Assembly (NCBI GenBank): GCA_903892035.1
Contig: CAITGV010000005.1
Coordinates: 41,011 to 105,010 of the forward strand
Length of the DNA stretch: 64,000 bases
Source: an uncultured bacterium
Lineage (GTDB): Bacteria; Patescibacteriota; Minisyncoccia; Phycocordibacterales; UBA9973
Direction of reading: 5' to 3'
The notes under the pieces were generated by a model that worked only from the letters and a program-made list of their open reading frames with translations, searched no databases and was not told the DNA's origin. A program made the position numbers and the translations under genes. Below, in pieces: positions 1 to 61,429 of the stretch; position 1 is the stretch's first letter, and each line of letters starts with the position of its first letter.

Positions 1-549
1 TCCTTGACCGTTACACTTTGAACAAGTTTTCATTTTACTTCCGTCTTTTGCACCAGTACCTTTGCAGGTCGTACATTTTGAAACTTTTGAAATTAAAACT
101 TTTCTATCAGTACCAAAAATTGAATCTTGAAATGCTATGTCGAGCTCTGTAGAAATATCTCGTCCACGTTTTTGTTGTGATGCTTGCCTGCCACCCATTC
201 CTCCTGTAAAAAATTCAGAAAAAATATCATTTATATCTCCCATATCAAAACCTTGATTTTGAAAACCAGAAAAATCAAAACCTCCAAAGCCCTGCCCTTG
301 GCCTCCATATCCACCCTGAGCCCCTCCAAAACCAGCTGGGCCTTCAGATCCAAATTGGTCATATTGAGCGCGCTTTTTATCGTCTGAAAGAGTCTGGTAA
401 GCTTCATTCACTTCTTTGAATTTCTTGTCGTCACCCGCGTTTTTATCCGGATGGTATTTGTGTGCCATCTTGTGAAAAGCCTTTTTTATTTCGTCTTTAC
501 TGGCTCCTTTCGAAACTCCCAGTGAAGCATAATAATCCTTATTTGCCAT
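1..549 (-). CDS. dnaJ: Molecular chaperone DnaJ (partial; C-terminal part lies beyond the window edge)
   Basis: Reverse-strand translation from ATG at 549-547 gives MANKDYYASLGVSKGASKDEIKKAFHKMAHKYHPDKNAGDDKKFKEVNEAYQTLSDDKKRAQYDQFGSEG... It shows a J-domain with the HPD motif, a Gly/Phe-rich linker and the start of the CxxCxGxG zinc-finger repeats. The ORF track misses it because it runs off the window. Confidence 0.85.
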   Translation of the reverse strand, partial: MANKDYYASLGVSKGASKDEIKKAFHKMAHKYHPDKNAGDDKKFKEVNEAYQTLSDDKKRAQYDQFGSEGPAGFGGAQGGYGGQGQGFGGFDFSGFQNQGFDMGDINDIFSEFFTGGMGGRQASQQKRGRDISTELDIAFQDSIFGTDRKVLISKVSKCTTCKGTGAKDGSKMKTCSKCNGQG

Positions 550-671
550 AGGTCAAAAGTATATCATAAAAATAAAAATGAGAAAAATTTAGGCAAAAAA
601 AGAAACACCCATCTCTGAATGCCTCTCCTGTTAATTTTTATGAACATTTAGTTTCGCTGTTAAATACCAAT

Positions 672-707
672 TTTACCAACTCAGAGCGATAGGTTTGACT
701 TGGTAAA
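672..707. repeat. 36-bp inverted-repeat unit (TTTACCAACTCAGAGCGATAGGTTTGACTTGGTAAA). It has 8-bp palindromic ends TTTACCAA/TTGGTAAA and lies between the stop of the PaaX-like gene and the dnaJ start.
   Basis: Exact reverse complement of 1264-1299 (36/36), read directly from the sequence. It sits about 120 bp upstream of the dnaJ start (minus strand). Confidence 0.9.
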
Positions 708-750
708 AAAATTTATTTGGTTGCTATAAAGTAGTTGGGGGAAGAAACCG

Positions 751-1245
751 TTAAAATTTAAATCCTTTAGCCAACTTGAATGTCTTGAAATTGTCTTTGA
801 TTTTTATTTCTTGCACATATTTTATAAAATCTTTCGGCAATGGAGATGGGCCTACCCAGACACTTCGTTGAATCATAACGAAGTGAAATTTGCGAAGCTC
901 GCGTCTAAACCAGTTTCTTTCCGTTTTTTTGTCTTCCGGTATATCATATAATATCAATAGATCCTTCGGGTCATTTTCTGTTTTCTCGGGTGTAAATTTC
1001 TTAAGAATAGTTCGCGTCTTTTCATTTAAGAATAATTCTCCTTTGTAGGTAATGACATAGTTACCATACATTTCCTTTATATACCCTTTGCTTTTTAAAT
1101 CTGAACACCTGTTAGCCAAAGTCTGATATTTATAATGCTTGAAATCTGGCAATCCCAAAAATCCCACGCGCATACCTTTGTATCGCAAAACCTGCTTATT
1201 TTTACTTTCACTTAAGTATTTCAAAACCTTCCTTTCAATACTCAT
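751..1245 (-). CDS. PaaX-like small regulator: N-terminal winged-helix DNA-binding domain plus C-terminal Cas2/VapD-like fold (truncated, no PaaX_C domain)
   Basis: 164-aa ORF. The N-terminal ~90 aa (YQTLANRCSDLKSKGYIKEMYGNYVITYKGELFL) resembles the PaaX wHTH. The segment DLLILYDIPEDKKTERNWFRRELRKFHFVMIQRSVWVG matches the Cas2-like beta-alpha-beta core (YDI..D, QRSVW ~ Cas2 QYSVF; PaaX middle domain WLLLLSEGLDK..L.KQLIWQGFG). It is flanked by perfect 36-bp inverted repeats. Confidence 0.6.
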   Translation of the reverse strand: MSIERKVLKYLSESKNKQVLRYKGMRVGFLGLPDFKHYKYQTLANRCSDLKSKGYIKEMYGNYVITYKGELFLNEKTRTILKKFTPEKTENDPKDLLILYDIPEDKKTERNWFRRELRKFHFVMIQRSVWVGPSPLPKDFIKYVQEIKIKDNFKTFKLAKGFKF

Positions 1246-1263
1246 ATCAAATATTGTATCATC

Positions 1264-1299
1264 TTTACCAAGTCAAACCTATCGCTCTGAGTTGGTAAA
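1264..1299. repeat. Second copy of the 36-bp inverted-repeat unit (TTTACCAAGTCAAACCTATCGCTCTGAGTTGGTAAA). It lies 18 bp upstream of the PaaX-like gene start and 68 bp upstream of the rmuC start.
   Basis: Exact reverse complement of 672-707. It sits in the divergent promoter region between the PaaX-like gene (minus) and rmuC (plus). Confidence 0.9.
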
Positions 1300-1367
1300 G
1301 TATACGATTTTTGTTTTGAGTAAGAGTTTTTTACAATTATTTTTTGAATTTATGCTAAAATATCTCT

Positions 1368-2402
1368 ATGCAAACAGTATTAATTTTAATTGGAGGAATT
1401 GTGGGAGGGGTAATGATTGCTTCTTTTTTAATGAAAAAAAATAGTGGTGAAAAAAAAGATGATACAGGACTGCAACTCATATTGGCACAAATGAATGAGC
1501 TCACTCGCACCGTAGATGCAAAGCTCGGTGATAGTACAAAACAAATGAATGAAAGCATGCGTCACCAGTCGAGCGAAGCCACAAAGATTATTCGTGATGT
1601 TACAGAAAAGCTCACTCGCCTCGACGAAACAAATAAACAAGTTGTTTCTTTTACCGAACAACTCGAAGAATTGCAAGATATTTTAAAAAATCCAAAACAG
1701 CGTGGCATCCTTGGTGAATATTATCTCGAAGCACTTTTGAAAAATGTCTTCCCTGCTGGTGGGTATGAAATGCAATATGGTTTTCCCGATGGCAGTATTG
1801 TGGACGCAGCTGTATTTGTAAAAGACAAAATAATTCCTGTTGATTCAAAATTTTCTTTAGAAAATTATAATCGCATGGCTGGAGAAAAAGATCCTGATCG
1901 AAAACTTGATTATCAAAAACAATTTGAAAATGATTTAAAACTCCGCATTACAGAAACTTCAAAATACATCAAACCAGAAAACGGCACAATGGATTTCGCT
2001 TTTATGTTTATCCCTCACGAAGCTATTTATTACGACCTACTAATAAACAAAGTCGGTGGTGAAGAAAACTTAATTCAACGTGCTGCATCGAAATATAAAG
2101 TCATCATCGTTTCCCCTACTTCTTTCCTAGCATATTTACAAACAGTGCTTCAAGGTCTACGTGCAATGCAAATAGAAGAAACCGCAAAAGATGTAATCAA
2201 GCGCGTCGGAGAACTTGGTAAGCATTTGAAAGCTTTTGAAGACTATCATTTGAAACTTGGTAATGCCTTAAATACCGCCGTGAATCACTACACTGCTTCA
2301 GGAAAAGAATTTCGTAAAATAGATAAGGATGTGATGCGCATCGCAGATGATGCTCCAGGGCTCACTACTATTGCTCTCGAAAAGCCAAATCTAGAGGACT
2401 AA
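1368..2402 (+). CDS. rmuC: DNA recombination protein RmuC
   Basis: 344 aa with an N-terminal TM helix, coiled-coil and a RmuC-family C-terminal nuclease-like domain (GILGEYYLEALL, PVDSKF, MFIPHEAIYYDLL). Confidence 0.8.
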   Translation: MQTVLILIGGIVGGVMIASFLMKKNSGEKKDDTGLQLILAQMNELTRTVDAKLGDSTKQMNESMRHQSSEATKIIRDVTEKLTRLDETNKQVVSFTEQLEELQDILKNPKQRGILGEYYLEALLKNVFPAGGYEMQYGFPDGSIVDAAVFVKDKIIPVDSKFSLENYNRMAGEKDPDRKLDYQKQFENDLKLRITETSKYIKPENGTMDFAFMFIPHEAIYYDLLINKVGGEENLIQRAASKYKVIIVSPTSFLAYLQTVLQGLRAMQIEETAKDVIKRVGELGKHLKAFEDYHLKLGNALNTAVNHYTASGKEFRKIDKDVMRIADDAPGLTTIALEKPNLED

Positions 2403-3847: not shown

Positions 3848-4387
3848 TTGACTACCCTATTTGCTTTTGCTACCCTTTACCTGAATCGACGTACTGATTC
3901 TAAAATTTCTTTAATAAACCCTATAAATAATTTAACTATGGACACTGTGATTTCTGCTACTTATAAAGTAGCAATCCGAGAATTTGGCATCCTTCGTGAT
4001 GTCATTATTAAAAATGAGTCAATAATTTTCCAAGTGACTCGCGGTGAATTTGCAAAAGAAGTGCAACACTGCAAAGAAAGAGAAGAGCGAATCAAAAACG
4101 CTTTAAAAAAAGAAAACATTCCATTTGAAGAAGTTCATTTGGAAAATTTCTTCTACGTTAAGTGGCAGATAAAAAAATCATTTTTCTCAAATTTTTTTCC
4201 AATTAGTCTTAAAAGAATAATCAAAAAAGAATTAAAGAGAATTGATTTAAAAGTTATTTTCACTGAGGAAGTAGATGATAATACATTTATTTCTAAAGTT
4301 CTAAATGCCTTTGATCGCCAAATGGTAGATGACCATGAAAAAATTGGTACACTTACCTCAATAAGGAAATCGTATGGTTTCTCTTAA
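3848..4387 (+). CDS. Hypothetical protein (179 aa; an internal start at 3938 is possible)
   Basis: Only plus-strand ORF in this region. It is followed by a good rho-independent terminator at 4394-4436. No recognisable domain. Confidence 0.45.
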   Translation: MTTLFAFATLYLNRRTDSKISLINPINNLTMDTVISATYKVAIREFGILRDVIIKNESIIFQVTRGEFAKEVQHCKEREERIKNALKKENIPFEEVHLENFFYVKWQIKKSFFSNFFPISLKRIIKKELKRIDLKVIFTEEVDDNTFISKVLNAFDRQMVDDHEKIGTLTSIRKSYGFS

Positions 4388-4561: not shown

Positions 4562-5863
4562 TTATCTATTTAACCATTCTTTGTCCTGTCGCACAAGGAG
4601 GGTTTCAAAGTCCTCGGGGTTTGCCATAAGTTCAAGCACAGTGCGCTCCATGCGCATTCCTTGCGAACCTTTTATGAGAATAAGGTCACCTGGGAGAATA
4701 TTGTTTTGAATAAAAAGTCCTGCTTGTTGTGCTTCGTCGAGATGAAATAAATTTTGTTTCGGAAAACCAGCTCGCATTGCGCCTTCGTACATATGCTCAG
4801 CGCGAACTCCGACAGTAATTAAAATATCGCAATAATCTTTTGTAATTTCACCAATTTTTTCGTGTTCAGCGAGTGTATGTTTTCCAAGCTCAAGCATATC
4901 ACCCAAAATTGCAATTCGTCTGCCTGTAACTTCAATATTTTTTAATGTGATTAAAGCAGATTCACAAGCTACAGGTGAAGAATTGTACGAATCATCTATT
5001 ATTAAACTCCCTTTAATTCCCGAAAGTAAATGTAAGCGTCCAGGTGGAGTAATATAATTTTTCATCGATTGTATTGAATCAATCATATTTAAGTTTAGTG
5101 CGTAAGCTACTGAAAGCGCACCCAGGGCAGCATAGACATGATTTATACCTACAATATTTGAAACAGAAACAGGCAAAGCATTGCCATCGTATTCCAATTT
5201 GAAATTCATACCTTTTATTTGCTTTTGATTTTCTTTATTTTCATACCACAATTCTTCATTTGAAGCTTGAAGCATCGCACCAGAATTCATACCAAAATTA
5301 ATAGTTTTAACTTTAATTTTTTCTTTCAATTCCATCACCTTTGTATCGTCAAAATTTAAAATTAAAATTCCATCTTTTTTAACAGACTCCGCAAGTGCCC
5401 TCTTTTCTTCTATGACTGCATCAACATTTGGAAATGCTTCTACATGCACTGGTACATCTGGGAGTCTTGTAATTATCACAACATCTGGAGAAATCCATTT
5501 TGTAATATTTTTTATCGCTCCCGGCCTGTCTGCACCTAATTCTAAAATTAAATATTCTGGATAAATGTTTTTTTTAATTAAAAGCATAAAACCTTCCAAA
5601 ATATTTGCTATCCAAAGAAATGGATTATTCCAGCCATTTCCAAGTCCTAAAATTGTGAGTGGCACAGCAATGTCGGCATCGTAGCTTTTATCAATTTTTC
5701 TCACATATACAAATTGTGATAAAACAGTGTATATAGCATCTTTTGTTGAAGTTTTGCCCACACTTCCAGTGATAGCAATAATCTTTGGTTTATATTTTTT
5801 TAATACAAGGCGTGATTGCCATGTAATAATTGAAATAACTATTTTTTTAAAAATATTTTTCAT
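4562..5863 (-). CDS. murF: UDP-N-acetylmuramoyl-tripeptide--D-alanyl-D-alanine ligase
   Basis: 433 aa Mur ligase (ITGSVGKTSTKD P-loop; middle and C-terminal Mur ligase domains), located at the end of the dcw cluster. Confidence 0.8.
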   Translation of the reverse strand: MKNIFKKIVISIITWQSRLVLKKYKPKIIAITGSVGKTSTKDAIYTVLSQFVYVRKIDKSYDADIAVPLTILGLGNGWNNPFLWIANILEGFMLLIKKNIYPEYLILELGADRPGAIKNITKWISPDVVIITRLPDVPVHVEAFPNVDAVIEEKRALAESVKKDGILILNFDDTKVMELKEKIKVKTINFGMNSGAMLQASNEELWYENKENQKQIKGMNFKLEYDGNALPVSVSNIVGINHVYAALGALSVAYALNLNMIDSIQSMKNYITPPGRLHLLSGIKGSLIIDDSYNSSPVACESALITLKNIEVTGRRIAILGDMLELGKHTLAEHEKIGEITKDYCDILITVGVRAEHMYEGAMRAGFPKQNLFHLDEAQQAGLFIQNNILPGDLILIKGSQGMRMERTVLELMANPEDFETLLVRQDKEWLNR

Positions 5864-7580: not shown

Positions 7581-7914
7581 TGTTCAACAATGAGCTACTC
7601 AAGGCCACATTTTCACGATTTGCAAATGAAGTTGCGGATGATTCTACAAAACCCAAACCTTTTGCATAACTCATATCTACAGAATTATCTTTAGACATAT
7701 ATTGCAATTCTAAGTTTGAAACATCGGTTGCGACTGATTTCATTTTAACTTCCAAATTCTTTTTTGCTAAAACATTGAAAACTGTATGCGCCAGAAAATA
7801 AATATATAATATCGCTACAATACCAAAAGATAGAGCTACAATCTTAAACACCCTTTTTTCAAGGTCATTGTTATTTACGATATTTGTTTTTGTTTGTAAT
7901 CTTATTTTTGTCAT
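7570..7914 (-). CDS. ftsL: Cell division protein FtsL-like (small bitopic membrane protein)
   Basis: 114 aa with a single TM helix followed by a coiled-coil-like region, in the conserved position between rsmH and ftsI. Confidence 0.55.
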   Translation of the reverse strand: MTKIRLQTKTNIVNNNDLEKRVFKIVALSFGIVAILYIYFLAHTVFNVLAKKNLEVKMKSVATDVSNLELQYMSKDNSVDMSYAKGLGFVESSATSFANRENVALSSSLLNNEI

Positions 7915-8917
7915 GTTTTTCTATAATTCTTAATTTTGCACTTCTTGATCTTGGGTTTTCTTTAATTTCTTTTTTACTTGATGTAATTGGTTTTTTTGTA
8001 ATCAATTCTCCAATATTTTCATCTTTATATTCTTTAAATAATCTTTTCACTATTCTGTCTTCTAAACTGTGAAATGAAATGACTGCAATGCGCCCTCCAA
8101 TATTTAAAATTTCCATACTTGCCGACAATGCTTTCTTTATTGTTTGCAATTCGTCATTTACTGCTATTCGTAGTGCTTGGAAAGTGCGTGTCGCAAAATG
8201 TGTCTTTTGGTGTCTGTAACTTGCCGGTACAGCATTTTTTATAATTTCAACAAGTTCAAATGTTGTATTGATTTCCTTCGTCTGGCGATACTCTACTATA
8301 AATTTTGCAATTCTTCGTGAATACCTTTCTTCGCCATAACCATAAATAATGTCAGCAATATTTTCTTCGTCCCATTCATTTACAATTTCTTTTGCTGAAA
8401 GCTTATTTACTCCAGCGCGCTCCATTGTCATAAGCAATGGTTCATCTCTCATAAAAGAGAAACCTCGCATAGACTCATCGAGCTGATATGAACTGATTCC
8501 TAAATCAAAAAGTATTGCATCAGCTTTTTTGGCGACTAAGTCCCCTTTTGGGGACTTAGTCGCCAAATCTAGGGCTTTCGCAATTTCAGCAAAACTTCCA
8601 TTATAAGTAAAAATTTTATTACCAACTTTTTTTACTCGCTCTGTCGCTTCGGTAATTGCATCGATATCTTTATCGATACCAATCATTTTCAAATTTTTAC
8701 CAAATTTTTCTGCTATTGCTACACTGTGTCCACCAAGACCAAGTGTCGCATCGATAAAAACACTATCAGACTTTATTTCCAAACCCTCTATAACTTCATT
8801 TAAAAGAACCGGTATATGATTCATAAATTTATAGCACTCCGACATTTCCAAGCTTTTCTGCCAAACTATCTGCTTTCTTTTCAACCATTGCTTTGTATTC
8901 GCTCCAAACTTTGTCAT
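7871..8917 (-). CDS. rsmH: 16S rRNA (cytosine1402-N4)-methyltransferase RsmH (MraW)
   Basis: 348 aa containing the SAM-MTase motifs (FIDATLGLGGHS, DLGISSYQLDE). It also contains an in-frame 34-bp perfect palindrome at 8531-8564. Confidence 0.85.
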   Translation of the reverse strand: MTKFGANTKQWLKRKQIVWQKSLEMSECYKFMNHIPVLLNEVIEGLEIKSDSVFIDATLGLGGHSVAIAEKFGKNLKMIGIDKDIDAITEATERVKKVGNKIFTYNGSFAEIAKALDLATKSPKGDLVAKKADAILFDLGISSYQLDESMRGFSFMRDEPLLMTMERAGVNKLSAKEIVNEWDEENIADIIYGYGEERYSRRIAKFIVEYRQTKEINTTFELVEIIKNAVPASYRHQKTHFATRTFQALRIAVNDELQTIKKALSASMEILNIGGRIAVISFHSLEDRIVKRLFKEYKDENIGELITKKPITSSKKEIKENPRSRSAKLRIIEKHDKNKITNKNKYRK

Positions 8918-40460: not shown

Positions 40461-41144
40461 ATGCAAACAATGGATAAAATTAAAACACTACCAAATGGAT
40501 CTAAATTAAATAAAAATCTACGCTTACTAATAATTATAAATACCGTAATTACTTTCACCGTTGGTATGTTTGCTCCTTTTTATGCGGTCTTCGTGGCGCA
40601 CATAGGTGGTGGAGCTGCACTTGCAGGAATTTCTTGGGCAGTCTTTTCTATTGTTTCTGGTGTACTTATTCTTGCTCTCTCAAAATGGGAGTTAAAGGTA
40701 AAACGCCGTCATGTTCTTCTCGCCACTGGATACCTGATACGTGCTGTAGTATTTTTAAGCTATGCATTTATGGACAATATCCCCCAACTTCTCATTACAC
40801 AAGTTCTTTGGGGTGTGGCTTCTGCAGTCGGAACTCCAGCATTTGATGCTCTTTACACTTCTCACACTTCTGCTGAATCTGCCATTGTCGAGTGGGGTGA
40901 CTGGGAAGGAATTGCAGCTATCGCGACTGGAGTAGCAGCTCTCGTCGGTGGATTCTTAATTCAAATAATTGGTTTCAAAATTTTATTCCTCTTTATGTCT
41001 GTAATCGCAGCTGGTCTTGGAAGCTATATTTTACGTGAAAGATACCTAATCAAAAAAGCTGAATTAAAAAAAGAAGTTCTTAAAACAGAAAAAGCTCAAA
41101 TAAAAAAAGAGTTGGAAAAAAATCTTCCCTCGAAATCATCTTAA
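40461..41144 (+). CDS. Membrane protein, 6-TM MFS-like half-transporter
   Basis: 227 aa with 6 TM helices and a Lys/Glu-rich C-terminal tail. Confidence 0.45.
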   Translation: MQTMDKIKTLPNGSKLNKNLRLLIIINTVITFTVGMFAPFYAVFVAHIGGGAALAGISWAVFSIVSGVLILALSKWELKVKRRHVLLATGYLIRAVVFLSYAFMDNIPQLLITQVLWGVASAVGTPAFDALYTSHTSAESAIVEWGDWEGIAAIATGVAALVGGFLIQIIGFKILFLFMSVIAAGLGSYILRERYLIKKAELKKEVLKTEKAQIKKELEKNLPSKSS

Positions 41145-49490: not shown

Positions 49491-50600
49491 TTAAATTTTA
49501 GCAAGAAATTCTTCTACTATTCTCTCTACGTCGGAAGCAGTTTCGGCAGATTCCATTAATTTCACGCGGAGTTCTTTGGCTCCATCGAAATTGTTTACAT
49601 ACGCTTTGTAATGTTTTTTCATTATGGCGAAATTTTTTGATCCACCCAATATTTCTTCAAAAAGTTTTGTGTGTTCTACCATGACACCAAGTTTCTCTCG
49701 GAGCGAAGGAGTGTAAAATTTTTCTTTTGAGAGAGCTCGGGAGTCGCGACGGCGACGGACAGAGAAAATTTTTAGCAAAAAATTTTCGTGTCTTAAAGAA
49801 GAGGAATTTTGCGCTCCGTTGTCTGGCAACGCATTTGCGTGTAAATTACTAAACAACCACGGGTTACCGAAAATGGCTCGGCCGAGCATCACGCCATCAC
49901 AACCAGTTTGTTTTATTTTTTTCCTTCCATCTTCCAAATCTTTCACATCACCATTTCCAATTATTAAAGTCTCCTTCCCCATCTTGTCGCGTATTGCGAC
50001 GGCTTCTTTCACATGCTCCCACCTTGCAGGCACGAGAGACATTTCTTTTCTAGTGCGCGCATGCACAGTGAGTACGGCAATATCTTCAGAAAGTATTTCA
50101 GGAATCCATTCATCGAGTGTCACTTTATTGTAACCCACGCGTGTTTTCACCGACACAGGAATATTTTTTCCTGCATCCTCCACTCCTTGCTTTACAGCTC
50201 TTATAATTTCCCGCGCATGATTTGCATCTTTTATATGCGCAGCGCCTGCACCTTGTTTTTCAATAGTCTTGTCGGGACAACCCATATTTATATCAACTCC
50301 ATCAAAACCGAGTTCTGCAATAAATTTCGCAGCACCGCGCATATTTTCGACATTACTTCCAAATATTTGCGCGACTATCGGTCGCTCGGCTTCAGTATAC
50401 ATAAGGTCTACCATCAATTTCTCTCTGCCAGCAGGATGCATCAAACCATCAGCAGACACAAATTCTGTCCACATCACATCGGACTTACCGTATTTTGCTA
50501 TAAGCCTGCGAAAAGCCGCGTCTGTGACGTCGGCCATCGGAGCAAGACAAAAAATGCCTTTGCCCTCTTTTGCTAAATTTTCCCAAAATCCTTTATTCAT
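49491..50600 (-). CDS. dus: tRNA-dihydrouridine synthase
   Basis: 369 aa with an FMN-binding TIM barrel (..LAPMADVTDAAFR.., ..VDINMGCP..) and a C-terminal helical tRNA-binding domain. Confidence 0.85.
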   Translation of the reverse strand: MNKGFWENLAKEGKGIFCLAPMADVTDAAFRRLIAKYGKSDVMWTEFVSADGLMHPAGREKLMVDLMYTEAERPIVAQIFGSNVENMRGAAKFIAELGFDGVDINMGCPDKTIEKQGAGAAHIKDANHAREIIRAVKQGVEDAGKNIPVSVKTRVGYNKVTLDEWIPEILSEDIAVLTVHARTRKEMSLVPARWEHVKEAVAIRDKMGKETLIIGNGDVKDLEDGRKKIKQTGCDGVMLGRAIFGNPWLFSNLHANALPDNGAQNSSSLRHENFLLKIFSVRRRRDSRALSKEKFYTPSLREKLGVMVEHTKLFEEILGGSKNFAIMKKHYKAYVNNFDGAKELRVKLMESAETASDVERIVEEFLAKI

Positions 50601-51481
50601 TACTTTGTAAACTTATACACTACTTTGCTATTGAAACGCAAATCGATATAAAGTAATTGTGAAAGTTTAGTTTTAAATTCTGTTGCAAAAGGTTCTGCTT
50701 TCAGTGCAGATGAAAGATTTGATGCAATTTTATCAATAATATTTTCATTATTAAAAATAATTTTTGGCGCATTGTAACTTCTATCACCATCTGAAATTAG
50801 CATTTCATAGGTACCATCACCTTTTATATAAACTCCAAATGTATGAATTTTCATAGTATCAAGAAAATTTTTAAATTGCACAATATTTTCAAAAATATTT
50901 CTTTCAGCAATTTTTTGTGTAACTGGATTTCCTGTATCAATATTTCCTTCACTTCCATAAAAAGTAAAATACACATCGCCAGAAAAAGATGGGGCTCTAT
51001 CGAAAATATAACCAGTACTGTCTAAATAGTAGCAACTTTCTTCAGCAATTTTTTTTGAAATATCGTCGGTAGAATTTCCACACCATAAATAACGCCCCGA
51101 TCTTTCACTTACAACTATTGAAATTGACTTCAAATCTTTTCTATAAACTTTCACATCTAGAAGCCGAGGAAATTGTTTATGTAAATCACTAATTATTTTA
51201 TTTTTGGAAAGTAGAAAAATATTTGTTTTTGGAAAAAGAAAATATTTTCCAGACAAATCTTTTTGTACTACATTCATTATACCTTTCGTCTCGACAATAT
51301 TATTTCCAGAAATCGATATACTAGCTACATTTATATTTTTGATTCTTGAAATAAAAACAAAAATTTCAAAAATTAATATAAAGCATAAAAAAACTAAAAG
51401 GATTTTATTTCGTCCCTTCACTTTTCTTTCACGCTGGACTTTCTCCATCTGCGGTGAATTTAATACTTCGCGTCTTTTCAT
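50600..51481 (-). CDS. ftsQ: Cell division protein FtsQ/DivIB-like (POTRA domain)
   Basis: 293 aa with a basic cytoplasmic N-terminus, one TM helix and a POTRA-like segment (IASISISGNNIVETKGIMNVV..). It shares an ATGA overlap with serS. Confidence 0.55.
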   Translation of the reverse strand: MKRREVLNSPQMEKVQRERKVKGRNKILLVFLCFILIFEIFVFISRIKNINVASISISGNNIVETKGIMNVVQKDLSGKYFLFPKTNIFLLSKNKIISDLHKQFPRLLDVKVYRKDLKSISIVVSERSGRYLWCGNSTDDISKKIAEESCYYLDSTGYIFDRAPSFSGDVYFTFYGSEGNIDTGNPVTQKIAERNIFENIVQFKNFLDTMKIHTFGVYIKGDGTYEMLISDGDRSYNAPKIIFNNENIIDKIASNLSSALKAEPFATEFKTKLSQLLYIDLRFNSKVVYKFTK

Positions 51482-52743
51482 TTTTCTATTTTATCAAAAC
51501 CTATATAAGGTCGTAGAACTTCGGGTATCAAAATACTTCCGTCTTCTTGCTGATTATTCTCAATGAGTGAAATGAGAATACGAGGAGTTGCTACCGCTGT
51601 ATTGTTTAGAGAATGAGCATAACGCAATTTGCCGTCTGTATCTTTATAACGAATATTTAATCGACGAGTTTGGAAATCGTGGAAATACGATGCTGAATGA
51701 GTTTCTCGATATTTCTCCATTGATGGAACCCAGACTTCAATATCATATTTTTTTGCTTGTCCAAGGCCCAAATCCCCTCCGCAATTTAATACTATGCGGT
51801 ATGGAAGATTTAATGATTGCAAAAGCTCTTCGACATTTGCTGTAATTTCTTCGTGAAATTTCACAGAAGTTTCGTGACTAGCTTCGGTAAGAATAACTTG
51901 TTCCAATTTATAAAATTCATGAACTCGAAAAAGTCCTTTTACATCTTTGCCGTGTGAGCCGGCTTCGCGACGAAAACATGTAGAAAATGATGCAAATTTA
52001 AGTGGCAATTTTTCTTTTTCAATTACCTCACCAGAATAATATGCCATCGTTGCTACTTCAGATGTGCCTGCGAGATAATCACTGTCTTGAGTTTTATATA
52101 AATCTTCTTCACCTTGTGGTAAATATCCTGTACCAAAAAGTGTCGCGCGATTTACAAGCGAAGGAACGATCATTGGTGAAAAACCTTTTTTCACAAGAGC
52201 ATCCATAAAATATCTCCACAAAGCCATTTCCAAAAGTGCTCCAGCATTTTTTAAAAAATATCCACGAAAGCCTGCAACCTTTGTTCCTCTTTCAAAATCT
52301 GCCAAATCAAGAGCCGTCATAAGTTCGACGTGATCCTTTGGTGTAAAAGTGAAATTTGTTTTTTCTCCCCAAACTTTATATTCAACATTTTCTTCATCGC
52401 TCGCTCCGTCTGGGACAGAAATATCGGGGACATTTGGCACGGTAAGCATTATTTCTTGCCACTTTTTCATTATTTCTTTCCACTCTTCGTCTTTGACATT
52501 CATATCTTCTTTGACGATTTTCATTTCTTCAATCATTTGATTGCGAGCAATTGTATCATGTTCAATACTTATACGGCGAGACATTTCATTTTGCTCAGCA
52601 CGAATGGCCTCAATTTGTTTCAAAAGTTCTAGGCGTCTATCATCGAGCGCAATTAAGGCTTCGATGTCTATATCGATGTGCTTTTTTGTTGCACCGGCTA
52701 TAACGATGTCTTTATTTTCCCGTATAAATTTAATGTCTAACAT
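51478..52743 (-). CDS. serS: Serine--tRNA ligase
   Basis: It has an N-terminal coiled-coil arm and a class II core (motif 2 ..FRREAGSHGKDVKGLFRVHEF.., motif 3 ..GGDLGLGQAKKYDIEVW..). The ORF extends to 52785, but MLDIKFIREN at 52743 is the likely start. Confidence 0.9.
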   Translation of the reverse strand: MLDIKFIRENKDIVIAGATKKHIDIDIEALIALDDRRLELLKQIEAIRAEQNEMSRRISIEHDTIARNQMIEEMKIVKEDMNVKDEEWKEIMKKWQEIMLTVPNVPDISVPDGASDEENVEYKVWGEKTNFTFTPKDHVELMTALDLADFERGTKVAGFRGYFLKNAGALLEMALWRYFMDALVKKGFSPMIVPSLVNRATLFGTGYLPQGEEDLYKTQDSDYLAGTSEVATMAYYSGEVIEKEKLPLKFASFSTCFRREAGSHGKDVKGLFRVHEFYKLEQVILTEASHETSVKFHEEITANVEELLQSLNLPYRIVLNCGGDLGLGQAKKYDIEVWVPSMEKYRETHSASYFHDFQTRRLNIRYKDTDGKLRYAHSLNNTAVATPRILISLIENNQQEDGSILIPEVLRPYIGFDKIEK

Positions 52744-52777
52744 ACGCCTATTATACAAAAAGTGGTAGAATATACAA

Positions 52778-53644
52778 ATGGACATTCATTCTATTCGAGA
52801 ATTGGATCCAAAACTTGTCCCCGAATCACTTTTTGAAATTCCTCAACCGCCGAAAACACTTTTTATTCGTGGCAATTTTCCTGACAAAGAAAAAATATTT
52901 CTCTGTGTTGTCGGATCTAGAAAATTTACATCATACGGCAGAGATGCGTGTGAAAAACTCATCGAGGGTCTGCGGGGCTACCCTGTCGTCATAGTTTCTG
53001 GTCTTGCGATGGGTATCGACTCAATTGCGCATAAAAAAGCGATGGAAGTCGGGCTCACGACACTCGCTTTCCCGGGAAGTGGACTAATGGATAAAGTAAT
53101 TTTTCCTACATCAAATGTACCACTTGCTAGAAAAATTGTTGAAAGTGGTGGCGCAATTATTTCTGAATTTCCAAATGATTTCAAAGCGACACTCTATAGT
53201 TTTCCTCAACGCAATCGTATAATGGCAGGCATTTCAAAAGCTGTACTTATTATTGAAGCTGAAGAAAAATCTGGCACTCTCATCACAGCTCGCCTTGCTG
53301 TAGAATACAATCGCGACGTTCTCGTCGTGCCGGGTTCTATAAATTCTCCAACATCAAAAGGCACAAACCGCCTCATTCGCCAGGGAGCGACACCCATTAC
53401 AAATAGTGATGAACTTCTTGAAGCATTAGGTTTTGAAGTTGATAATAAAAAAATGGTTCAGCAAGAACTTTTTAATTGTACAGATGATGAGAAAAAAGTT
53501 CTTGAAATTTTGCGTGAACCTTTTGCACGCGATGAATTAATTCGATTGTTAAAAAAGCCGACGCACGAAGCAAATGCCCTGCTTTCGATAATGGAAATAA
53601 AAGGATTGATCAAAGAAGAACTTGGAGAAATTAGAAAAGTGTAG
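52778..53644 (+). CDS. dprA: DNA processing protein DprA (Smf)
   Basis: 288 aa with a Rossmann-like DprA domain (..VVGSRKFTSYG.., ..VIVSGLAMGIDSIAHK.., ..GTLITARLA..) and a C-terminal wH-like extension. dprA-topA adjacency is common in bacteria. Confidence 0.85.
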   Translation: MDIHSIRELDPKLVPESLFEIPQPPKTLFIRGNFPDKEKIFLCVVGSRKFTSYGRDACEKLIEGLRGYPVVIVSGLAMGIDSIAHKKAMEVGLTTLAFPGSGLMDKVIFPTSNVPLARKIVESGGAIISEFPNDFKATLYSFPQRNRIMAGISKAVLIIEAEEKSGTLITARLAVEYNRDVLVVPGSINSPTSKGTNRLIRQGATPITNSDELLEALGFEVDNKKMVQQELFNCTDDEKKVLEILREPFARDELIRLLKKPTHEANALLSIMEIKGLIKEELGEIRKV

Positions 53645-53656
53645 TATTAATGTAAG

Positions 53657-53730
53657 GGTTCGGGAAAATGCTTTTTAAAATAGTCTGGGGATTGTTTCCG
53701 AGGACTTTTTAAAAAGCATTTTCCCGAACC
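53657..53730 (+). repeat. Long hairpin, copy 1: perfect 24-bp outer stem (GGTTCGGGAAAATGCTTTTTAAAA / TTTTAAAAAGCATTTTCCCGAACC), AGTC/GACT inner stem and a 17-nt loop TGGGGATTGTTTCCGAG
   Basis: Read directly. It starts 12 nt after the dprA stop. Its loop and inner stem are shared with copy 2 at 57580-57648, while the outer stems differ in sequence. Confidence 0.8.
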
Positions 53731-56082: not shown

Positions 56083-57570
56083 GTGCATAATGGTTATATG
56101 ACTGATGTAAACGAAATTTTTGAATTAGATGGTGTAATGAGCCAAAAAGACAAGGAGCTCGTCACTAAAGCTTACGAATTTGCTAAAAAAGCTCACGAAG
56201 GAACACTACGAAAAAGTGGTGATCCTTATTTTATACACGTCTTTGAAACTTCAAAAACTTTGGCGCGAATTGGGATGGATGCAAAAACAATTGCTGCAGG
56301 ACTACTTCATGACACACTCGAAGATACTACAGTGACAGAAGAAGAAATGGAAAAAGAATTTGGTATTGAAATAGTGAAGCTTGTAAATGGAGTGACAAAA
56401 TTGGGAAAAGTAAAATATCGTGGACGTGAAAGACACGTCGAAAGTTTGCGAAAATTCTTCATGGCTATGGCGGACGATTTGAGAATTTTAATAATCAAAC
56501 TCGCGGACAGACTTCACAATATAAGCACTATTGAACATTTACCCGAAGAAAAAAGAAAAAGAATTGCAATTGAAACAATTGAAATTCACGCTCGACTTGC
56601 GGACCGCATCGGTATGGGAATGCTCAAGGGTGACCTCGAAGACTACGCTTTCCCTTATGCTTACCCAAAAGAATATGCTGAAGTTGTAAAACTTTTGGAA
56701 ATTAGAAAAGCTACAAATGAAAAGGAGTTAATGGATGTTACAAATATACTTTCAAAAGAACTTACTGAACAAAAAATAAAAATATTTGAAATTGACCAAA
56801 GAGTAAAACATAAATACAGTCTTTGGAAAAAATTAGAGCGCTACAATATGGATATAGATAAAATCTACGACATTATTGCAATACGTGTTGTCGTAGGTAC
56901 AATTGGTGAGTGCTACCACACACTTGGTATAATTCATAAACTTTGGAATCCCCTCCCAGGACGCATCAAAGATTACATCGCAGTTCCAAAACCAAATGGC
57001 TATAGATCACTACACACTACTATTTTTACTGGCAATGGTGGAATATTGGAAATTCAAATTCGAACACAAGAAATGCATGCCGAAGCAGCATACGGTATAG
57101 CAGCGCATTTTGTATATAAAGAACATGGAATAAAAAATAAAAAAAAGAATGCTGAACCTGTAGAAAAAAAACTTGAATGGATTGACCAGTTGAAAGAATT
57201 GCAAAAAGTTGTCGCAGAACCGGCAAAATTTCTCGAACATTTAAAAACAGATTTTTTCCGAGATAGAATATTTATTTTTACACCAAAGGGTGATGTCGTA
57301 GATTTACCGGAAGACTCTGGCACTATTGATTTTGCTTTTGCAATTCACTCAGATATTGGTTTTCATGTATCAGGAGCAAAGATAAATGGCAAACTTTCAC
57401 CACTTTCGACAAAATTGAAAAATGGTGACATCGTAGAAATAATTGTTAGTAAAAATTCTCATCCAGCTTCTAAATGGCTCGACTATACAAAGACATCGCT
57501 CGCAAAAAGGCACATTCGTTCTTATCTTGAAGAAAATAGTTTGTATAATAAGTTTTTCGGAAAAAAGTAG
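56083..57570 (+). CDS. (p)ppGpp synthetase/hydrolase, short RSH (HD + synthetase + TGS domains only)
   Basis: 495 aa with an HD motif (HDTLED), a RelA/SpoT synthetase domain (..GYRSLHTTIF..) and a TGS domain (..IFIFTPKGDVVDLPEDSGTIDFAF..). No ACT/helical C-terminal region. Confidence 0.85.
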   Translation: MHNGYMTDVNEIFELDGVMSQKDKELVTKAYEFAKKAHEGTLRKSGDPYFIHVFETSKTLARIGMDAKTIAAGLLHDTLEDTTVTEEEMEKEFGIEIVKLVNGVTKLGKVKYRGRERHVESLRKFFMAMADDLRILIIKLADRLHNISTIEHLPEEKRKRIAIETIEIHARLADRIGMGMLKGDLEDYAFPYAYPKEYAEVVKLLEIRKATNEKELMDVTNILSKELTEQKIKIFEIDQRVKHKYSLWKKLERYNMDIDKIYDIIAIRVVVGTIGECYHTLGIIHKLWNPLPGRIKDYIAVPKPNGYRSLHTTIFTGNGGILEIQIRTQEMHAEAAYGIAAHFVYKEHGIKNKKKNAEPVEKKLEWIDQLKELQKVVAEPAKFLEHLKTDFFRDRIFIFTPKGDVVDLPEDSGTIDFAFAIHSDIGFHVSGAKINGKLSPLSTKLKNGDIVEIIVSKNSHPASKWLDYTKTSLAKRHIRSYLEENSLYNKFFGKK

Positions 57571-57579
57571 AAGTACGTA

Positions 57580-57648
57580 ATAAGAAATAGCGTTTTAAAA
57601 TGGTCTGGGGATTTTTTCCGAGGACCTTTTACAAACGCTATTTCTTAT
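57580..57648 (+). repeat. Long hairpin, copy 2: 16-bp outer stem (ATAAGAAATAGCGTTT / AAACGCTATTTCTTAT), GGTC/GACC inner stem and a 17-nt loop TGGGGATTTTTTCCGAG
   Basis: Read directly. It starts 9 nt after the rel stop. The core TTTTAAAAT(A/G)GTCTGGGGATT(G/T)TTTCCGAGGAC is shared with copy 1. Confidence 0.8.
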
Positions 57649-57660
57649 GAAGTTTATGTT

Positions 57661-58677
57661 CTATATCGAAAACTTATTTAAATTGTAGAGATCGGCTTCT
57701 TCTTCAGATTTTTGCATTTCATCTTTTGAGCGATCATCCTCTGCTTTACTTTCTTCTAAATTTTCAGTCGGTAAAGTAGACTCTTCGGGATTTTTTACTT
57801 CATTTTGTATTTGATTTGCTTCAAAACGCTCCATCATCATATTTGGATTACTATTTTTTTCAGTATGCATCATTTCAAGAATTGTGCGCAAATCCTCTGT
57901 AGTAAAATAATCAATCAATATTTGTCCCCCACTTTCTTTTCTTTCAATGTGTACACGAGTGCCGAAAGCTTCACCGAGTTTTTCTTCTATCTCCATAATT
58001 TCTGGATCAGGCAAAAGTTCTTTCTTGCGAGCCCGATCAAAGGCAATTTTTCTTGCTGTACGCTCTGCTTCACGAACACTAATTTTTTTATATAAAATTT
58101 CTTTAAATAAAACTGTCTGCTCCTCTGGTCTGTCGGAAAGCATCATCAAAGGTCTTGTGTGGCCTTCGCTAATTTTTCCTTCAGAAAGCGCGTTCAACAT
58201 TTCTTCAGGAAGATTTAGCAAGCGAATTGTATTTGAAACATATTCGCGACTTTTTCCAACTTTTGTTCCGACTTGAGCATGAGTAAATTTGAATTCATCC
58301 ACCAATCTTTGAAATGCTCGTGCACGATCTACAGAATTCAAATCTTCTCTTTGTAAATTTTCAATGATAGCAATTTCAAGCTTCGTCATTGAATCGTCTC
58401 CTTCGCGAATTATTACCGGTATTTGAGTCACGCCAGCAAGCTTTGAAGCACGCAAGCGTCGCTCACCAGCAATAAGCTCGTATTCTACAGCAAGACCTCC
58501 GTCTTCCTTTAAAATCTCTACACGCGAGACCGTGAGAGGCTGAATGAGACCATATTGGCGGATAGAGTCTGCTAAATCTCGAAGTGGTCCTTCTTCAAAC
58601 TCCCGTCGTGGTTGGTACGGATTTGGTTTAATCTTTTCTACGTCTACAAAAAAAATTGAATTTGAATATAATGGCAT
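57661..58677 (-). CDS. parB: ParB/Spo0J-family partition protein with an extended acidic C-terminal tail
   Basis: 338 aa with a ParB N-terminal CTPase-like domain (..GLIQPLTV.., GERRLRA box), an HTH, and a ~90-aa Glu/Asp/Lys-rich C-terminus. No parA is adjacent. Confidence 0.8.
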   Translation of the reverse strand: MPLYSNSIFFVDVEKIKPNPYQPRREFEEGPLRDLADSIRQYGLIQPLTVSRVEILKEDGGLAVEYELIAGERRLRASKLAGVTQIPVIIREGDDSMTKLEIAIIENLQREDLNSVDRARAFQRLVDEFKFTHAQVGTKVGKSREYVSNTIRLLNLPEEMLNALSEGKISEGHTRPLMMLSDRPEEQTVLFKEILYKKISVREAERTARKIAFDRARKKELLPDPEIMEIEEKLGEAFGTRVHIERKESGGQILIDYFTTEDLRTILEMMHTEKNSNPNMMMERFEANQIQNEVKNPEESTLPTENLEESKAEDDRSKDEMQKSEEEADLYNLNKFSI

Positions 58678-59896: not shown

Positions 59897-61429
59897 ATGA
59901 TATATAATAGGCAAATGAAAATAAAAAACGAAAAAGAACGCATCGGTAATTTTATTAAAACTATACGTGAGGGGCAAGGTTTTACTCAAGAAGAGTTTGC
60001 AAAAGCTCTATCTACCTCGCAAAGTGCTGTGGCTCGCATGGAGAGCGGTAAACAAAATTTTACAATGGAGCAACTCGAGAAAATAAGTACAGTATTGGGC
60101 AGAAAAATTCTTTCCCTTTCTTCTTCAATAGACTTTGAAATAAATGGTGGCAAAAAACTATCGGGTAGCATCGATACAAATTATTCAAAAAATGGCGCGA
60201 TCAATATGCTCTGCGCTACTCTCATAAACCAAGGCAAAACAGTGCTACACGGTATTCCTCACATCGAGGAAGTACACCGCTATATAGAAATAATGCAAAG
60301 TCTCGGAGTTTCCGTAAAATGGATTGGTGATGATTCACTTGAAATTATAGTTCCAAATAAATTAAATTTTGAAAGTATAGACAAAGATACGGTGGCAAGA
60401 ACTCGTTCATTTACATTTGTCGGAGCTCTTATTCACTATGCAAAATCATTCACTTACCCAAACTCTGGTGGTTGCAAAATGGGAGAGCGCACTATAGCTG
60501 CGCATAAATACGGCTTGGAAAAACTTGGTGTAAAAATTTTAACCAAAAAAAATACATATGAAATTTCTTATAAAAAATTAAAGCCAAATACTATCCCCCT
60601 CTATGAATCCAGCGACACAGGAGCTATCAATATGCTCATTGCAGCTGCAAGAATTCCGGGAATTACAACAATAAAATTTGCTCCGCCAAATTACCAGGTG
60701 CAAGACGTATGTTTTCTTTTAGAAAAAATGGGAATAAAAATTGAAGGTATTGGTACTACTACTCTCGTAGTGCACGGAGTCGAACAAATAAATAAAAATA
60801 TTGAACATTATAATAGTGAAGACCCTATTGAATCAATGTTTTTCATTACTGCAGGAATTGTCACAAAATCAAAAATAACAATAAATCGCTGCCCCATAGA
60901 ATTCCTCGAACTCGAAATGGAAAAACTTTTACATATGGGTCAAAAATACACAAAATCAAAACCCTATTTTTCAAAAAACGGACGAACGACTTTAGTCGAC
61001 ATTACGATACTCCCTTCAAATCTAAAAGCATTGCCGGACAAAATTCACACACAACCTTTCCCTGGAATTCAAAATGACAGTTTGCCATTTTTCGTGTCTA
61101 TCGCTGTTCAAGCAAAAGGCACCACGCTCATTCACGATTGGACTTGGGAAAATAGAGCGATATATTTTACTGAGTTAAATAAATTGGGTGCAAAAATAAC
61201 CCTTATGGATCCACATAGAGCCATCATAGAAGGCCCATCAAAGCTTCGTGGAGCGCAAATAGTCTGCCCACCTGCACTCCGCCCTTCTGCAACAATATTT
61301 ATCAGTATGCTTGCCGCCGAGGGAGTCTCGACTCTTCGAAATATTTACTCAATTGCACGTGGCTATGAAGATATTGCCGAAAGATTAAATTCACTCGGTG
61401 CTGATATAAAAATTTTGAAAGGCATTTAA
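59897..61429 (+). CDS. murA: UDP-N-acetylglucosamine 1-carboxyvinyltransferase with an N-terminal XRE-family HTH domain (fusion)
   Basis: Residues ~7-75 form an HTH_XRE domain (IGNFIKTIREGQGFTQEEFAKALSTSQSAVARMESGKQNFTMEQLEKISTVLG). The remaining ~420 aa are MurA/EPT fold, with the active-site Cys loop at YPNSGGCKMGERTI. The start may be at 59915 instead. Confidence 0.8.
   Translation: MIYNRQMKIKNEKERIGNFIKTIREGQGFTQEEFAKALSTSQSAVARMESGKQNFTMEQLEKISTVLGRKILSLSSSIDFEINGGKKLSGSIDTNYSKNGAINMLCATLINQGKTVLHGIPHIEEVHRYIEIMQSLGVSVKWIGDDSLEIIVPNKLNFESIDKDTVARTRSFTFVGALIHYAKSFTYPNSGGCKMGERTIAAHKYGLEKLGVKILTKKNTYEISYKKLKPNTIPLYESSDTGAINMLIAAARIPGITTIKFAPPNYQVQDVCFLLEKMGIKIEGIGTTTLVVHGVEQINKNIEHYNSEDPIESMFFITAGIVTKSKITINRCPIEFLELEMEKLLHMGQKYTKSKPYFSKNGRTTLVDITILPSNLKALPDKIHTQPFPGIQNDSLPFFVSIAVQAKGTTLIHDWTWENRAIYFTELNKLGAKITLMDPHRAIIEGPSKLRGAQIVCPPALRPSATIFISMLAAEGVSTLRNIYSIARGYEDIAERLNSLGADIKILKGI

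Follow-up and report, generated by a model that had tools for sequence, protein, structure and literature searches.

Does the long hairpin that separates the convergent rel and parB genes of this bacterium serve the expression of those genes, or has it come to lie there by another route? The window analysed here, by which we mean the whole stretch of 64,000 nt of DNA, comes from an uncultured member of the Patescibacteria. The hairpin, at 57580-57648 and called copy 2 here, lies in the 90-nt spacer (57571-57660) between the two genes; a sibling, copy 1, lies between dprA and topA. A preliminary description of the window had identified the two as members of a hairpin family, and had pointed out that copy 2 is so placed that it could act on both transcripts. 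The hairpin is confirmed to be real, and beyond what chance would produce. We consider it probable that copy 2 arose by insertion of a short, non-autonomous palindromic mobile element that has colonised the genomes of the Parcubacteria group; it has the look of selfish DNA and not of a regulator made for the site. At this junction it is most likely a lineage-specific insertion that is neutral or mildly consequential, and does nothing essential.

The hairpin at the rel-parB junction

The outer stem of copy 2 comprises 16 perfect base pairs, as the preliminary description stated and as both direct reading and folding confirm; the location 9 nt beyond the rel stop codon in a 90-nt convergent gap had also been correctly given. 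Inside the stem lie TAAAAT-G on the left and C-TTTTAC on the right, enclosing the head (Table 1). The 17 nt that had been described as the loop are themselves structured. In the fold the head forms a GGUCU/GGACC stem that includes a U.G pair, followed by a GG/GA internal loop, a GGA/UCC stem and a UUUUU terminal loop. In the collar, AAAA/TTTT pairs stand where most members of the family have tandem G.A/A.G pairs. At the foot of the hairpin two closing pairs, AC/GT, flank a GUA/GAA 3x3 internal loop, so that the structure extends to 57575-57653.

Both strands fold strongly. As RNA the plus strand gives -35.2 kcal/mol (z -8.8) and the minus strand -29.9 kcal/mol (z -8.7), and in each case none of 200 shuffled sequences folded as well. 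As single-stranded DNA the values are -21.5 and -20.3 kcal/mol for the plus and minus strands, respectively.

The head pattern GTCTGGGGATT[T/G]TTTCCGAGGAC matches twice in the window, where 0.00 matches are expected. A covariance model run over the whole window finds just copies 1 and 2, at 80.9 and 77.7 bits, with the runner-up at ~15 bits (E ~1); by pattern and model alike there is no third copy of the head or the element in the window. The cores of the two copies differ at exactly 3 positions (A/G, G/T and T/C), the number noted before, and their outer arms are unrelated. No donor for the arms of either copy is found elsewhere in the window. For copy 2 the exact matches are the two arms themselves, and 2 further matches with 2-3 mismatches are at chance level.

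We compared the junction with its counterparts in related genomes. A metagenome scan with the Rel protein gave 60 orthologous loci of 41-70% identity, 302 kb in all, among which the gene order dprA-topA-rel><parB is conserved. The covariance model finds 0 copies of the element in these 302 kb. Twenty-four rel-parB junctions were inspected; in 6 the genes overlap by 4 nt and in 7 they are 1-22 nt apart, among them all the closest relatives, which lack a hairpin. In many relatives (L083, L084, L088, L092, L113 and others) the stop codons of the convergent frames share a 4-nt overlap, leaving zero intergenic DNA. Since the ends of these genes overlap or lie so close together in the relatives, almost the whole 90-nt spacer of the window is accounted for by the inserted element with its arms. 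Judged by this comparison of junctions, copy 2 with its arms is extra DNA. The dprA-topA spacer that holds copy 1 is 113 nt in the window, compared with 39-57 nt in four relatives; in a fifth, L090, it is 127 nt and holds a different palindrome. A look-up of strain polymorphism using ParB returned only the source scaffold and one short contig.

Other palindromes occupy the same spacers in relatives. Among those seen in the rel-parB and dprA-topA spacers are plain perfect palindromes (L099 and L102). Long perfect hairpins centred on GCGGTCGC and flanked by an A-run and a T-run lie in the rel-parB spacers of L104 (one, ~4005-4065) and L107 (two in tandem, ~3970-4115), and these orthologous hairpins exhibit a compensatory change of T-A to C-G. 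L098 has a hairpin type with a larger head, and L112 and L121 have ordinary terminator-like hairpins. Palindromic insertions of all kinds thus favour the rel-parB and dprA-topA junctions, which are hot spots for them.

Table 1. Positions of copy 2 and its parts, the adjoining genes, copy 1, and the Y1 transposase genes of other loci. Positions without a locus prefix are those of the window.
Feature	Position	Strand	Basis and remarks
Whole copy 2 hairpin element, including foot	57575..57653	+	Inverted repeat with 31-nt arms, 84% complementary; folds; covariance model 77.7 bits
Copy 2 left outer arm ATAAGAAATAGCGTTT, locus-specific	57580..57595	+	Perfect complement of 57633-57648
Copy 2 left collar TAAAATG	57596..57602	+	AAAA pairs with TTTT of right side; U at 57601 bulged; fold and family alignment columns 27-33
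Copy 2 conserved 23-nt head GTCTGGGGATTTTTTCCGAGGAC	57603..57625	+	Pattern match and fold
Copy 2 right collar CTTTTAC	57626..57632	+	C at 57631 unpaired
Copy 2 right outer arm AAACGCTATTTCTTAT	57633..57648	+	Inverted repeat partner of left arm
rel (RelA/SpoT family)	56083..57570	+	Pfam HD_4, RelA_SpoT, TGS; stop 9 nt upstream of hairpin
parB, convergent with rel	57661..58677	-	Pfam ParB_N, HTH_ParB, ParB_C; stop 12 nt from right arm
Sibling copy 1, dprA-topA spacer	53657..53730	+	24-bp perfect arm; head 53683-53705; same orientation as copy 2
Y1 transposase genes	L059:3019-3753, L076:3169-3867, L044:4454-5107, L052:6758-7219, L108:~4885-5550		PF01797

The family in Parcubacteria-group genomes

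A scan with the pattern GTCTGGGGANNNNNTCCGAGGAC, using one genome per species, matched at least 80 loci. Ten of the matches listed are chance matches in high-GC genomes outside the candidate phyla radiation (CPR), with random letters in the loop. Matches in CPR genomes all have ATT[T/G]TTT at the free positions (TT[T/G]TT at the five loop positions), and amount to at least 74 copies, i.e. 72 sites plus the 2 in the window. They are distributed over ~34 assemblies, several of which have 4-6 sampled copies. The only head position that varies among the copies is loop position 12, which is T or G, identity of the head outside the 5 free positions being imposed by the search pattern. The assemblies are labelled Paceibacterota, Nomurabacteria, Zambryskibacteria, Minisyncoccia, Parcubacteria or Patescibacteria, together with some 'Saccharibacteria' TPA bins; Nomura- and Zambryski-bacteria both fall in the Parcubacteria group. 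The element is ~70-90 nt in size, is non-coding, and occurs at a density of about one copy per 30-80 kb.

The structure and covariation of the family were analysed in a gapless alignment of 72 copies. There is a conserved block of ~44 nt, TTTTT(C)GAATG-head-C(T/C)GAG AAAAA, outside which the sequence is free while pairing continues for another 10-20 bp. The earlier statement that the family has a conserved core, with arms that differ and are yet complementary, therefore holds over all the copies aligned. With a hand-written structure 84.3% of cells are paired, compared with 64.8% on shuffling and at most 62.7% with slid partners, and the covariation score is 0.49, against 0.15. RNAalifold predicts the same hairpin from the aligned copies. 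Positions -1/23 (G-C or A-U) and -3/24 (A-U or G-C) covary, and the U at -2 is bulged.

The collar is usually T5(C)-GA...GA-(G)A5, with tandem G.A pairs formed between its two GA dinucleotides. In some copies these are exchanged for Watson-Crick pairs, and both copies in the window have AA/UU. A K-turn reading of the GA/GA collar was rejected; the helix runs uninterrupted through the tandem G.A pairs and lacks a 3-nt bulge, and the Watson-Crick replacements (in both window copies among others) also argue against it. Roughly between one fifth and one third of the copies have a GNAG motif at the foot; at position -25 it is found in 16 of 73, with a background of 0.6. In the fold it becomes a GNA/GNA internal loop with two closing pairs, a geometry that copy 2 retains with GUA/GAA. 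On looking for target-site duplications we found no consistent direct repeat; the GNAG foot and the GA/GA beside the head could be either structural or a duplication.

Related elements exist. Types B and C have nested heads, in which the collar and the lower part GGTCTGG...CCGAGGACC are retained under another apex; the apex of type B (six copies in a model search of the loci) is CTGGGrTrGGGACCCAGAGrT. In types D-F of the same search the collar is present and the heads are unrelated. In L065 two copies with heads of type A, the type found in the window (1094-1182 on the minus strand and 1176-1264 on the plus strand), lie in opposite orientation with an overlap of a few bases, in-frame in a single open reading frame (ORF); in the former the head is a variant, GATCTGG...CCGAAGATC, whose pairing is intact.

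Within the reach of the literature searched, full-text searches returned nothing on palindromic, miniature inverted-repeat transposable element (MITE) or hairpin elements of Patescibacteria or CPR. This is apparently a family of small palindromic repeats of the Parcubacteria-group (CPR) bacteria that has not been described so far. There are 0 matches to the head among the viral contigs of IMG/VR, and a phage origin is ruled out on that basis.

Copies within genes and their orientation

Between 39 and 40 of the at least 74 copies lie within long stop-free frames that extend for at least 60 codons on either side (e.g. 268+788 and 240+923 aa), and the remainder fill intergenic spacers. Head plus collar is open in five of the six frames and all five are in use. 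The antisense frames read ..SQVLGKNPQTIRK.. in 21 copies, ..SSEKIPRPF.. in 8 and ..SGPRKKSPDH.. in 5, and sense frames are used in 5. In alignments the element is an extra segment relative to orthologues in an RsmA-like methyltransferase, at three separate insertion sites in a cysteine desulfurase-like protein, at two in a UvrD/PcrA-like helicase, and in a Dus-like protein. The family is multi-copy both within and across genomes, and occupies spacers as well as housekeeping ORFs, in which it is in-frame and free of stops. A synthetic 48-aa query representing the inserted peptide gave no candidates in a protein database, a result that is uninformative.

The intergenic copies sit between a true stop and the next true start, or between gene ends. 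In L024 there is an element in each of three consecutive spacers (ftsK, small gene, recA, efp). We discarded the idea that genes are split by the element or that it is excised from the RNA, since the intergenic '<<' copies lie between true stops and starts and the frames of copies within ORFs are always open.

Other inserts were seen within genes. In L039 a different repeat, richer in GC and encoding RGVSQADGPRGSAP.A.GDSDPAE, is present as two in-frame copies in the UvrD/PcrA-like ORF (locus 4-2196, minus strand); one occupies the site of the type A head of L023 and the other comes directly after the head-A copy. In the window, an ORF similar to tRNA-dihydrouridine synthase genes (dus-like; 49491-50600, minus strand) carries an in-frame insert at 49695-49829 that forms a branched hairpin of -54 kcal/mol. 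This differs from head A, yet it occupies the exact site of a type A head in the L080 orthologue, and it has the short modules CGCGACGGCG and GAGGAATTTT in common with an element at L041:929-1047. At 8528-8567 there is a 40-nt palindrome lacking a head, with 18-bp perfect arms, a TTTT loop and a local fold of -44 kcal/mol. It is read in-frame as LATKSPKGDLVAK within ORF 7871-8917 (minus strand), which is RsmH/MraW-like by its sequence motifs.

The copies are not oriented at random with respect to genes. The GTCTGGGG strand is antisense to the gene in 35 of 39 copies within ORFs, and in co-directional spacers it is antisense in 14 against 5, so that the overall gene-relative bias is 49 to 9. 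Both copies of the window are in the minority orientation. The local GC skew has the same sign as the gene bias, so replication and transcription are inseparable as its cause. Mismatches in the stems of intergenic copies are G.T in 23 cases and A.C in 24; there is no excess of G.U, and so no sign of selection on one RNA strand. For antisense copies within ORFs the version present in the mRNA is the weaker hairpin (46 vs 15, p = 9e-5), the opposite of what is expected under selection for mRNA structure.

These data bear on the role suggested by the location of copy 2, namely a host-selected element at the 3′ end of the rel and parB mRNAs that acts as a bidirectional terminator or as a barrier to 3′ exonucleases. 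It lies 9 nt past one stop codon and 12 nt past the other, and as a stable hairpin between convergent genes that folds well on both strands it resembles an intrinsic bidirectional terminator. The AT-rich stem is nevertheless followed by GAAGTTTATG on the plus strand and TACGTACTTC on the minus strand, with no flanking A-run or T-run. Indeed the collar of the family, with T5 upstream and A5 downstream of a conserved, structured tip, has the opposite polarity to that of a terminator. Convergent genes flank six members of the family, and many members are just past stop codons, but 4 lie between divergent genes and the 39-40 copies within ORFs are hard to accommodate. Similarly, the spacers of L104, L107, L112 and L121 contain other hairpins, including those with a terminator-like A-run, stem and T-run, yet in the closest relatives the gene ends overlap and are without a hairpin, and such a hairpin is missing from the majority of the other gene ends of the window. 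We therefore think a selected role at the 3′ end unlikely. A canonical intrinsic terminator is rejected outright, there being no U-tract on either strand and no hit in a terminator scan of the window.

The preliminary description had it that copy 2 could act on both transcripts; that it is placed there to do so is not supported. The pair noted there belongs to a family some 37 times larger, spread over many genomes and about half in-frame within ORFs; the 60 orthologous junctions have no copy, those of the closest relatives overlapping or abutting; and a T-run is lacking. At most, copy 2 provides both convergent transcripts with a stable 3′ hairpin that the relatives show is not required, and an incidental effect on the 3′ ends of rel and parB is possible. 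It should not be taken for a conserved regulatory feature.

A stable fold, conserved loops and covarying stems are also properties of an independently transcribed small structured RNA. Such a gene is extremely improbable here, given a 90-nt spacer that is too small for a promoter, an antisense location within ORFs for most copies, intergenic copies without an excess of G.U, and no Rfam family at gathering thresholds. The only gathering-level matches to Rfam in the window are 3 tRNAs, so a known RNA family is excluded; in E-value mode there are chance matches of up to 22 bits, compared with gathering thresholds of 40-249, mostly to generic long-hairpin miRNA-precursor models.

Turnover, probable movement and known systems

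The occupancy of orthologous sites is variable. At one position in RsmA the head is antisense in L015 and sense in L064, while L058 has a different 34-nt head on arms that are homologous to those of L067. In L067 itself the head and part of one arm are gone, leaving TTTTTCGAAAA. At site B of the desulfurase family the same head is found in three reading frames across genomes and other heads in two more, and at sites A and C there is presence, truncation, another insert, or nothing. Decayed copies are seen in L074 and L043. These comparisons show that orthologous sites gain, lose and exchange heads.

Non-homologous loci, by contrast, can share a unit. In each of the pairs L003/L034 and L059/L077:1751 the head, the collar and ~17 nt of each inner arm are identical, while the 1.5-kb flanks have no homology detectable by tblastx; the outermost 5-7 bp of the stem differ from copy to copy and are still complementary. 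Head and ~17 nt of inner arm are thus common to loci that are not homologous. The arms are unrelated in the orthologous site pair L059/L025, and again in L019 and L048, which have independent inserts at the same protein site. The arms are therefore not made from the target flanks, and with the window offering no donor their copying from nearby DNA is ruled out. The shared units suggest that what moves is the head plus inner arms. Insertion appears to tend toward the middle of an existing palindrome or a permissive hot spot, with copies subsequently decaying and being replaced.

Could the head be the binding site of a conserved host protein, recognised as folded DNA or RNA in chromosome organisation, replication or DNA uptake and kept by selection? 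Assemblies that bear the names of different candidate phyla (Nomuraibacteriota and Zambryskiibacteriota) have the same head, the stem covaries, the hairpin contains purine-rich internal loops of a sort typical of hairpins recognised by proteins, and the copies in the window adjoin parB, dprA and topA. We nevertheless find this doubtful. The 60 related rel loci have no copy, and heads are lost or swapped at orthologous sites, indicating that individual copies are dispensable; moreover the positions in protein loops, in five frames, resemble tolerated insertions and not chosen sites. For an uptake signal, a density of one copy per 30-80 kb is far too low, and there is no canonical parS nearby, nor is the head parS-like. 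Both candidates were rejected individually. The 16-bp parS palindrome TGTTNCACGTGAAACA has one match in the window with 3 mismatches, at 41027, which is at the level of chance, and it is unrelated to the head; a DNA uptake sequence would occur about once per kb, whereas the 64 kb of the window contain 2 copies and the 302 kb of the rel loci contain 0.

A quite different possibility is that nothing has moved, and that palindromes arise and grow locally by template switching during replication, the shared head being an ancient remnant. Several observations are in keeping with local growth: the two arms often pair without a mismatch, the outer parts of the stem are peculiar to their locus and still complementary, L104 and L107 differ by a compensatory change, and plain palindromes without a head occur in the same spacers and in ORFs. 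But such growth cannot put an identical unit of 44-80 nt, comprising head, collar and inner arm, at non-homologous loci, nor can it put that unit into a spacer that measures 0-22 nt in relatives, and as a complete explanation we regard it as very unlikely. Template-switch correction of quasi-palindromes is an established mutational mechanism, and template switching may explain the upkeep of the arms after insertion.

We return to the insertion of a mobile element. The tip is structured and conserved, the stem is paired although its sequence is free, copies are numerous and widespread with a strong strand bias, they insert at the centres of palindromes, and they have no coding capacity. This fits a non-autonomous element mobilised in trans. 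Its anatomy is a conserved apical head, GGUCU-GG-GGA-UUUUU-UCC-GA-GGACC, then the collar, and then a stem that needs only to pair. Head and inner arms would be moved by an enzyme that recognises the folded head, probably through an intermediate of single-stranded DNA. The preferred landing sites would be the centres or tips of existing palindromes, giving rise to nested hairpins, local outer stems and hot spots. Complementarity of the arms could be kept by selection for competence in transposition, by template switching or arm-to-arm correction, or by both; the template-switch route would agree with the compensatory change in L104/L107 and with outer stems that are local.

Y1/HUH transposases (the TnpA of IS200/IS605 and the RAYTs, i.e. 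REP-associated tyrosine transposases, REP being repetitive extragenic palindromic) read imperfect DNA hairpins on single strands, and this would be the most plausible class of enzyme. Y1_Tnp genes (PF01797, IS200-like, HUH motif NH[YF]H) are present in 5 of the loci analysed, and there is none in the window. Those of L059, L076 and L044 each have their own short GC-rich hairpin on both sides, e.g. GAGCAAGG-ACTCC-CCTTGCTC in L076; for that of L052 a hairpin is seen only upstream, as the locus ends there. These hairpins do not resemble the head of the element, and in the loci analysed Y1_Tnp genes near copies number 4 per 560 kb against 1 per 300 kb, which is no clear enrichment. The Y1 class is thus no more than plausible.

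Several points weigh against a mobile element. No enzyme is linked to it, the hairpins of the Y1_Tnp genes being unrelated and the genes not clearly enriched near copies, and no target-site duplication is definable. Among the sampled loci no two copies from the same genome share arms, which gives no hint of a recent burst. The frequency of perfect arms and the L104/L107 change could reflect selection for a host function, the orientation bias could reflect selection at the level of RNA instead of the mechanism of insertion, and the invariance of the head is in part a product of the exact-match search.

The family resembles several known systems without fitting the definition of any. The Rickettsia palindromic elements (RPE) are small palindromic repeats inserted in-frame into many unrelated genes (PMC10969869). 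The present elements are similarly short, non-coding, palindromic and multi-copy in a bacterium with a reduced genome, and are both intergenic and unusually often in-frame in housekeeping ORFs, where they add a segment of peptide; the likeness holds for the family, copy 2 itself being intergenic. RPE are ~150 bp, with each family conserved over its full length and encoding a conserved peptide. Here, by contrast, conservation is confined to the apical 23-44 nt, every locus has a stem of its own, and five frames give five peptides. The hosts are Patescibacteria, unrelated to Rickettsia, and the distinction is drawn from descriptions of RPE.

REP sequences and REPINs are short hairpin-forming repeats, of which a genome has tens; the presumed agent of their movement, acting in trans, is a RAYT (a Y1 HUH enzyme) that reads the folded hairpin. 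Hairpin repeats with presumed mobilisation in trans, and hairpin-flanked Y1_Tnp genes in the same genomes, are likewise found here. In REP, however, the stem is conserved and the repeats are extragenic, whereas here the tip is conserved, the stem is variable and half of the copies are intragenic; and in contrast to the RAYT system the hairpins beside the Y1_Tnp genes are unlike the head. RPE are the closest parallel in behaviour and REP/REPIN-RAYT the closest in mechanism. Single-strand transposition of the IS200/IS605 type would orient copies by strand with respect to replication; the present copies are strongly biased with respect to genes (49 to 9) and to local GC skew, which are mutually confounded.

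MITEs and the pneumococcal repeats BOX, RUP and SPRITE are small and non-autonomous, form stable hairpins in transcripts, cluster in hot spots and insert into one another (PMC10969869). Like MITEs, the present elements are short (~70-90 nt) and non-coding, with several copies per assembly. A MITE is defined by conserved terminal inverted repeats related to those of a parent insertion sequence, together with target-site duplications. The elements described here differ in that the arms are inverted within a copy and unrelated between copies, and the conserved part is central. The insertion sequences IS1397 and ISKpn1 insert into the loops of REP sequences, and are thus mobile DNA that targets the tip of a palindrome, as nested heads and local outer stems suggest for the present family. 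They are, however, full insertion sequences that encode a transposase, while the unit here is non-coding and of 44-80 nt.

It is possible, and we offer this only tentatively, that the family represents a new class of mobile hairpin in Patescibacteria, with conservation of the structured tip and not of the termini, insertion aimed at the tips or centres of palindromes to build layered hairpins, heads that are exchanged at fixed 'sockets', an enzyme that reads the hairpin, and the repeated remodelling of surface loops in essential proteins of bacteria whose genomes are among the smallest. The invariant tip, free stem and nested heads point to a mechanism of mobilisation by hairpin recognition that can be searched for and tested. 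Genomes of CPR/Patescibacteria are regarded as streamlined, and if the insertion of a mobile element is correct the family would be the CPR counterpart of the RPE phenomenon in Rickettsia. Repeats translated within genes for DNA repair, RNA modification and Fe-S metabolism would then be a source of innovation in protein loops, and of artefacts in annotation and alignment. In addition, the 23-nt head is a convenient marker with which to trace these lineages in metagenomes.

Two further features of the window were noted. The ORF at 59897-61429 (plus strand) encodes MurA (EPSP_synthase fold) with an N-terminal HTH_3 domain, and the same fusion is present on the source scaffold (L081). The GC skew is negative over 1-52 kb and becomes approximately zero or slightly positive over 52-60 kb. 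This shift occurs at ~50000-52800, in the vicinity of the divergent genes serS and dprA and not far from parB, and the region may be that of a replication origin or terminus.
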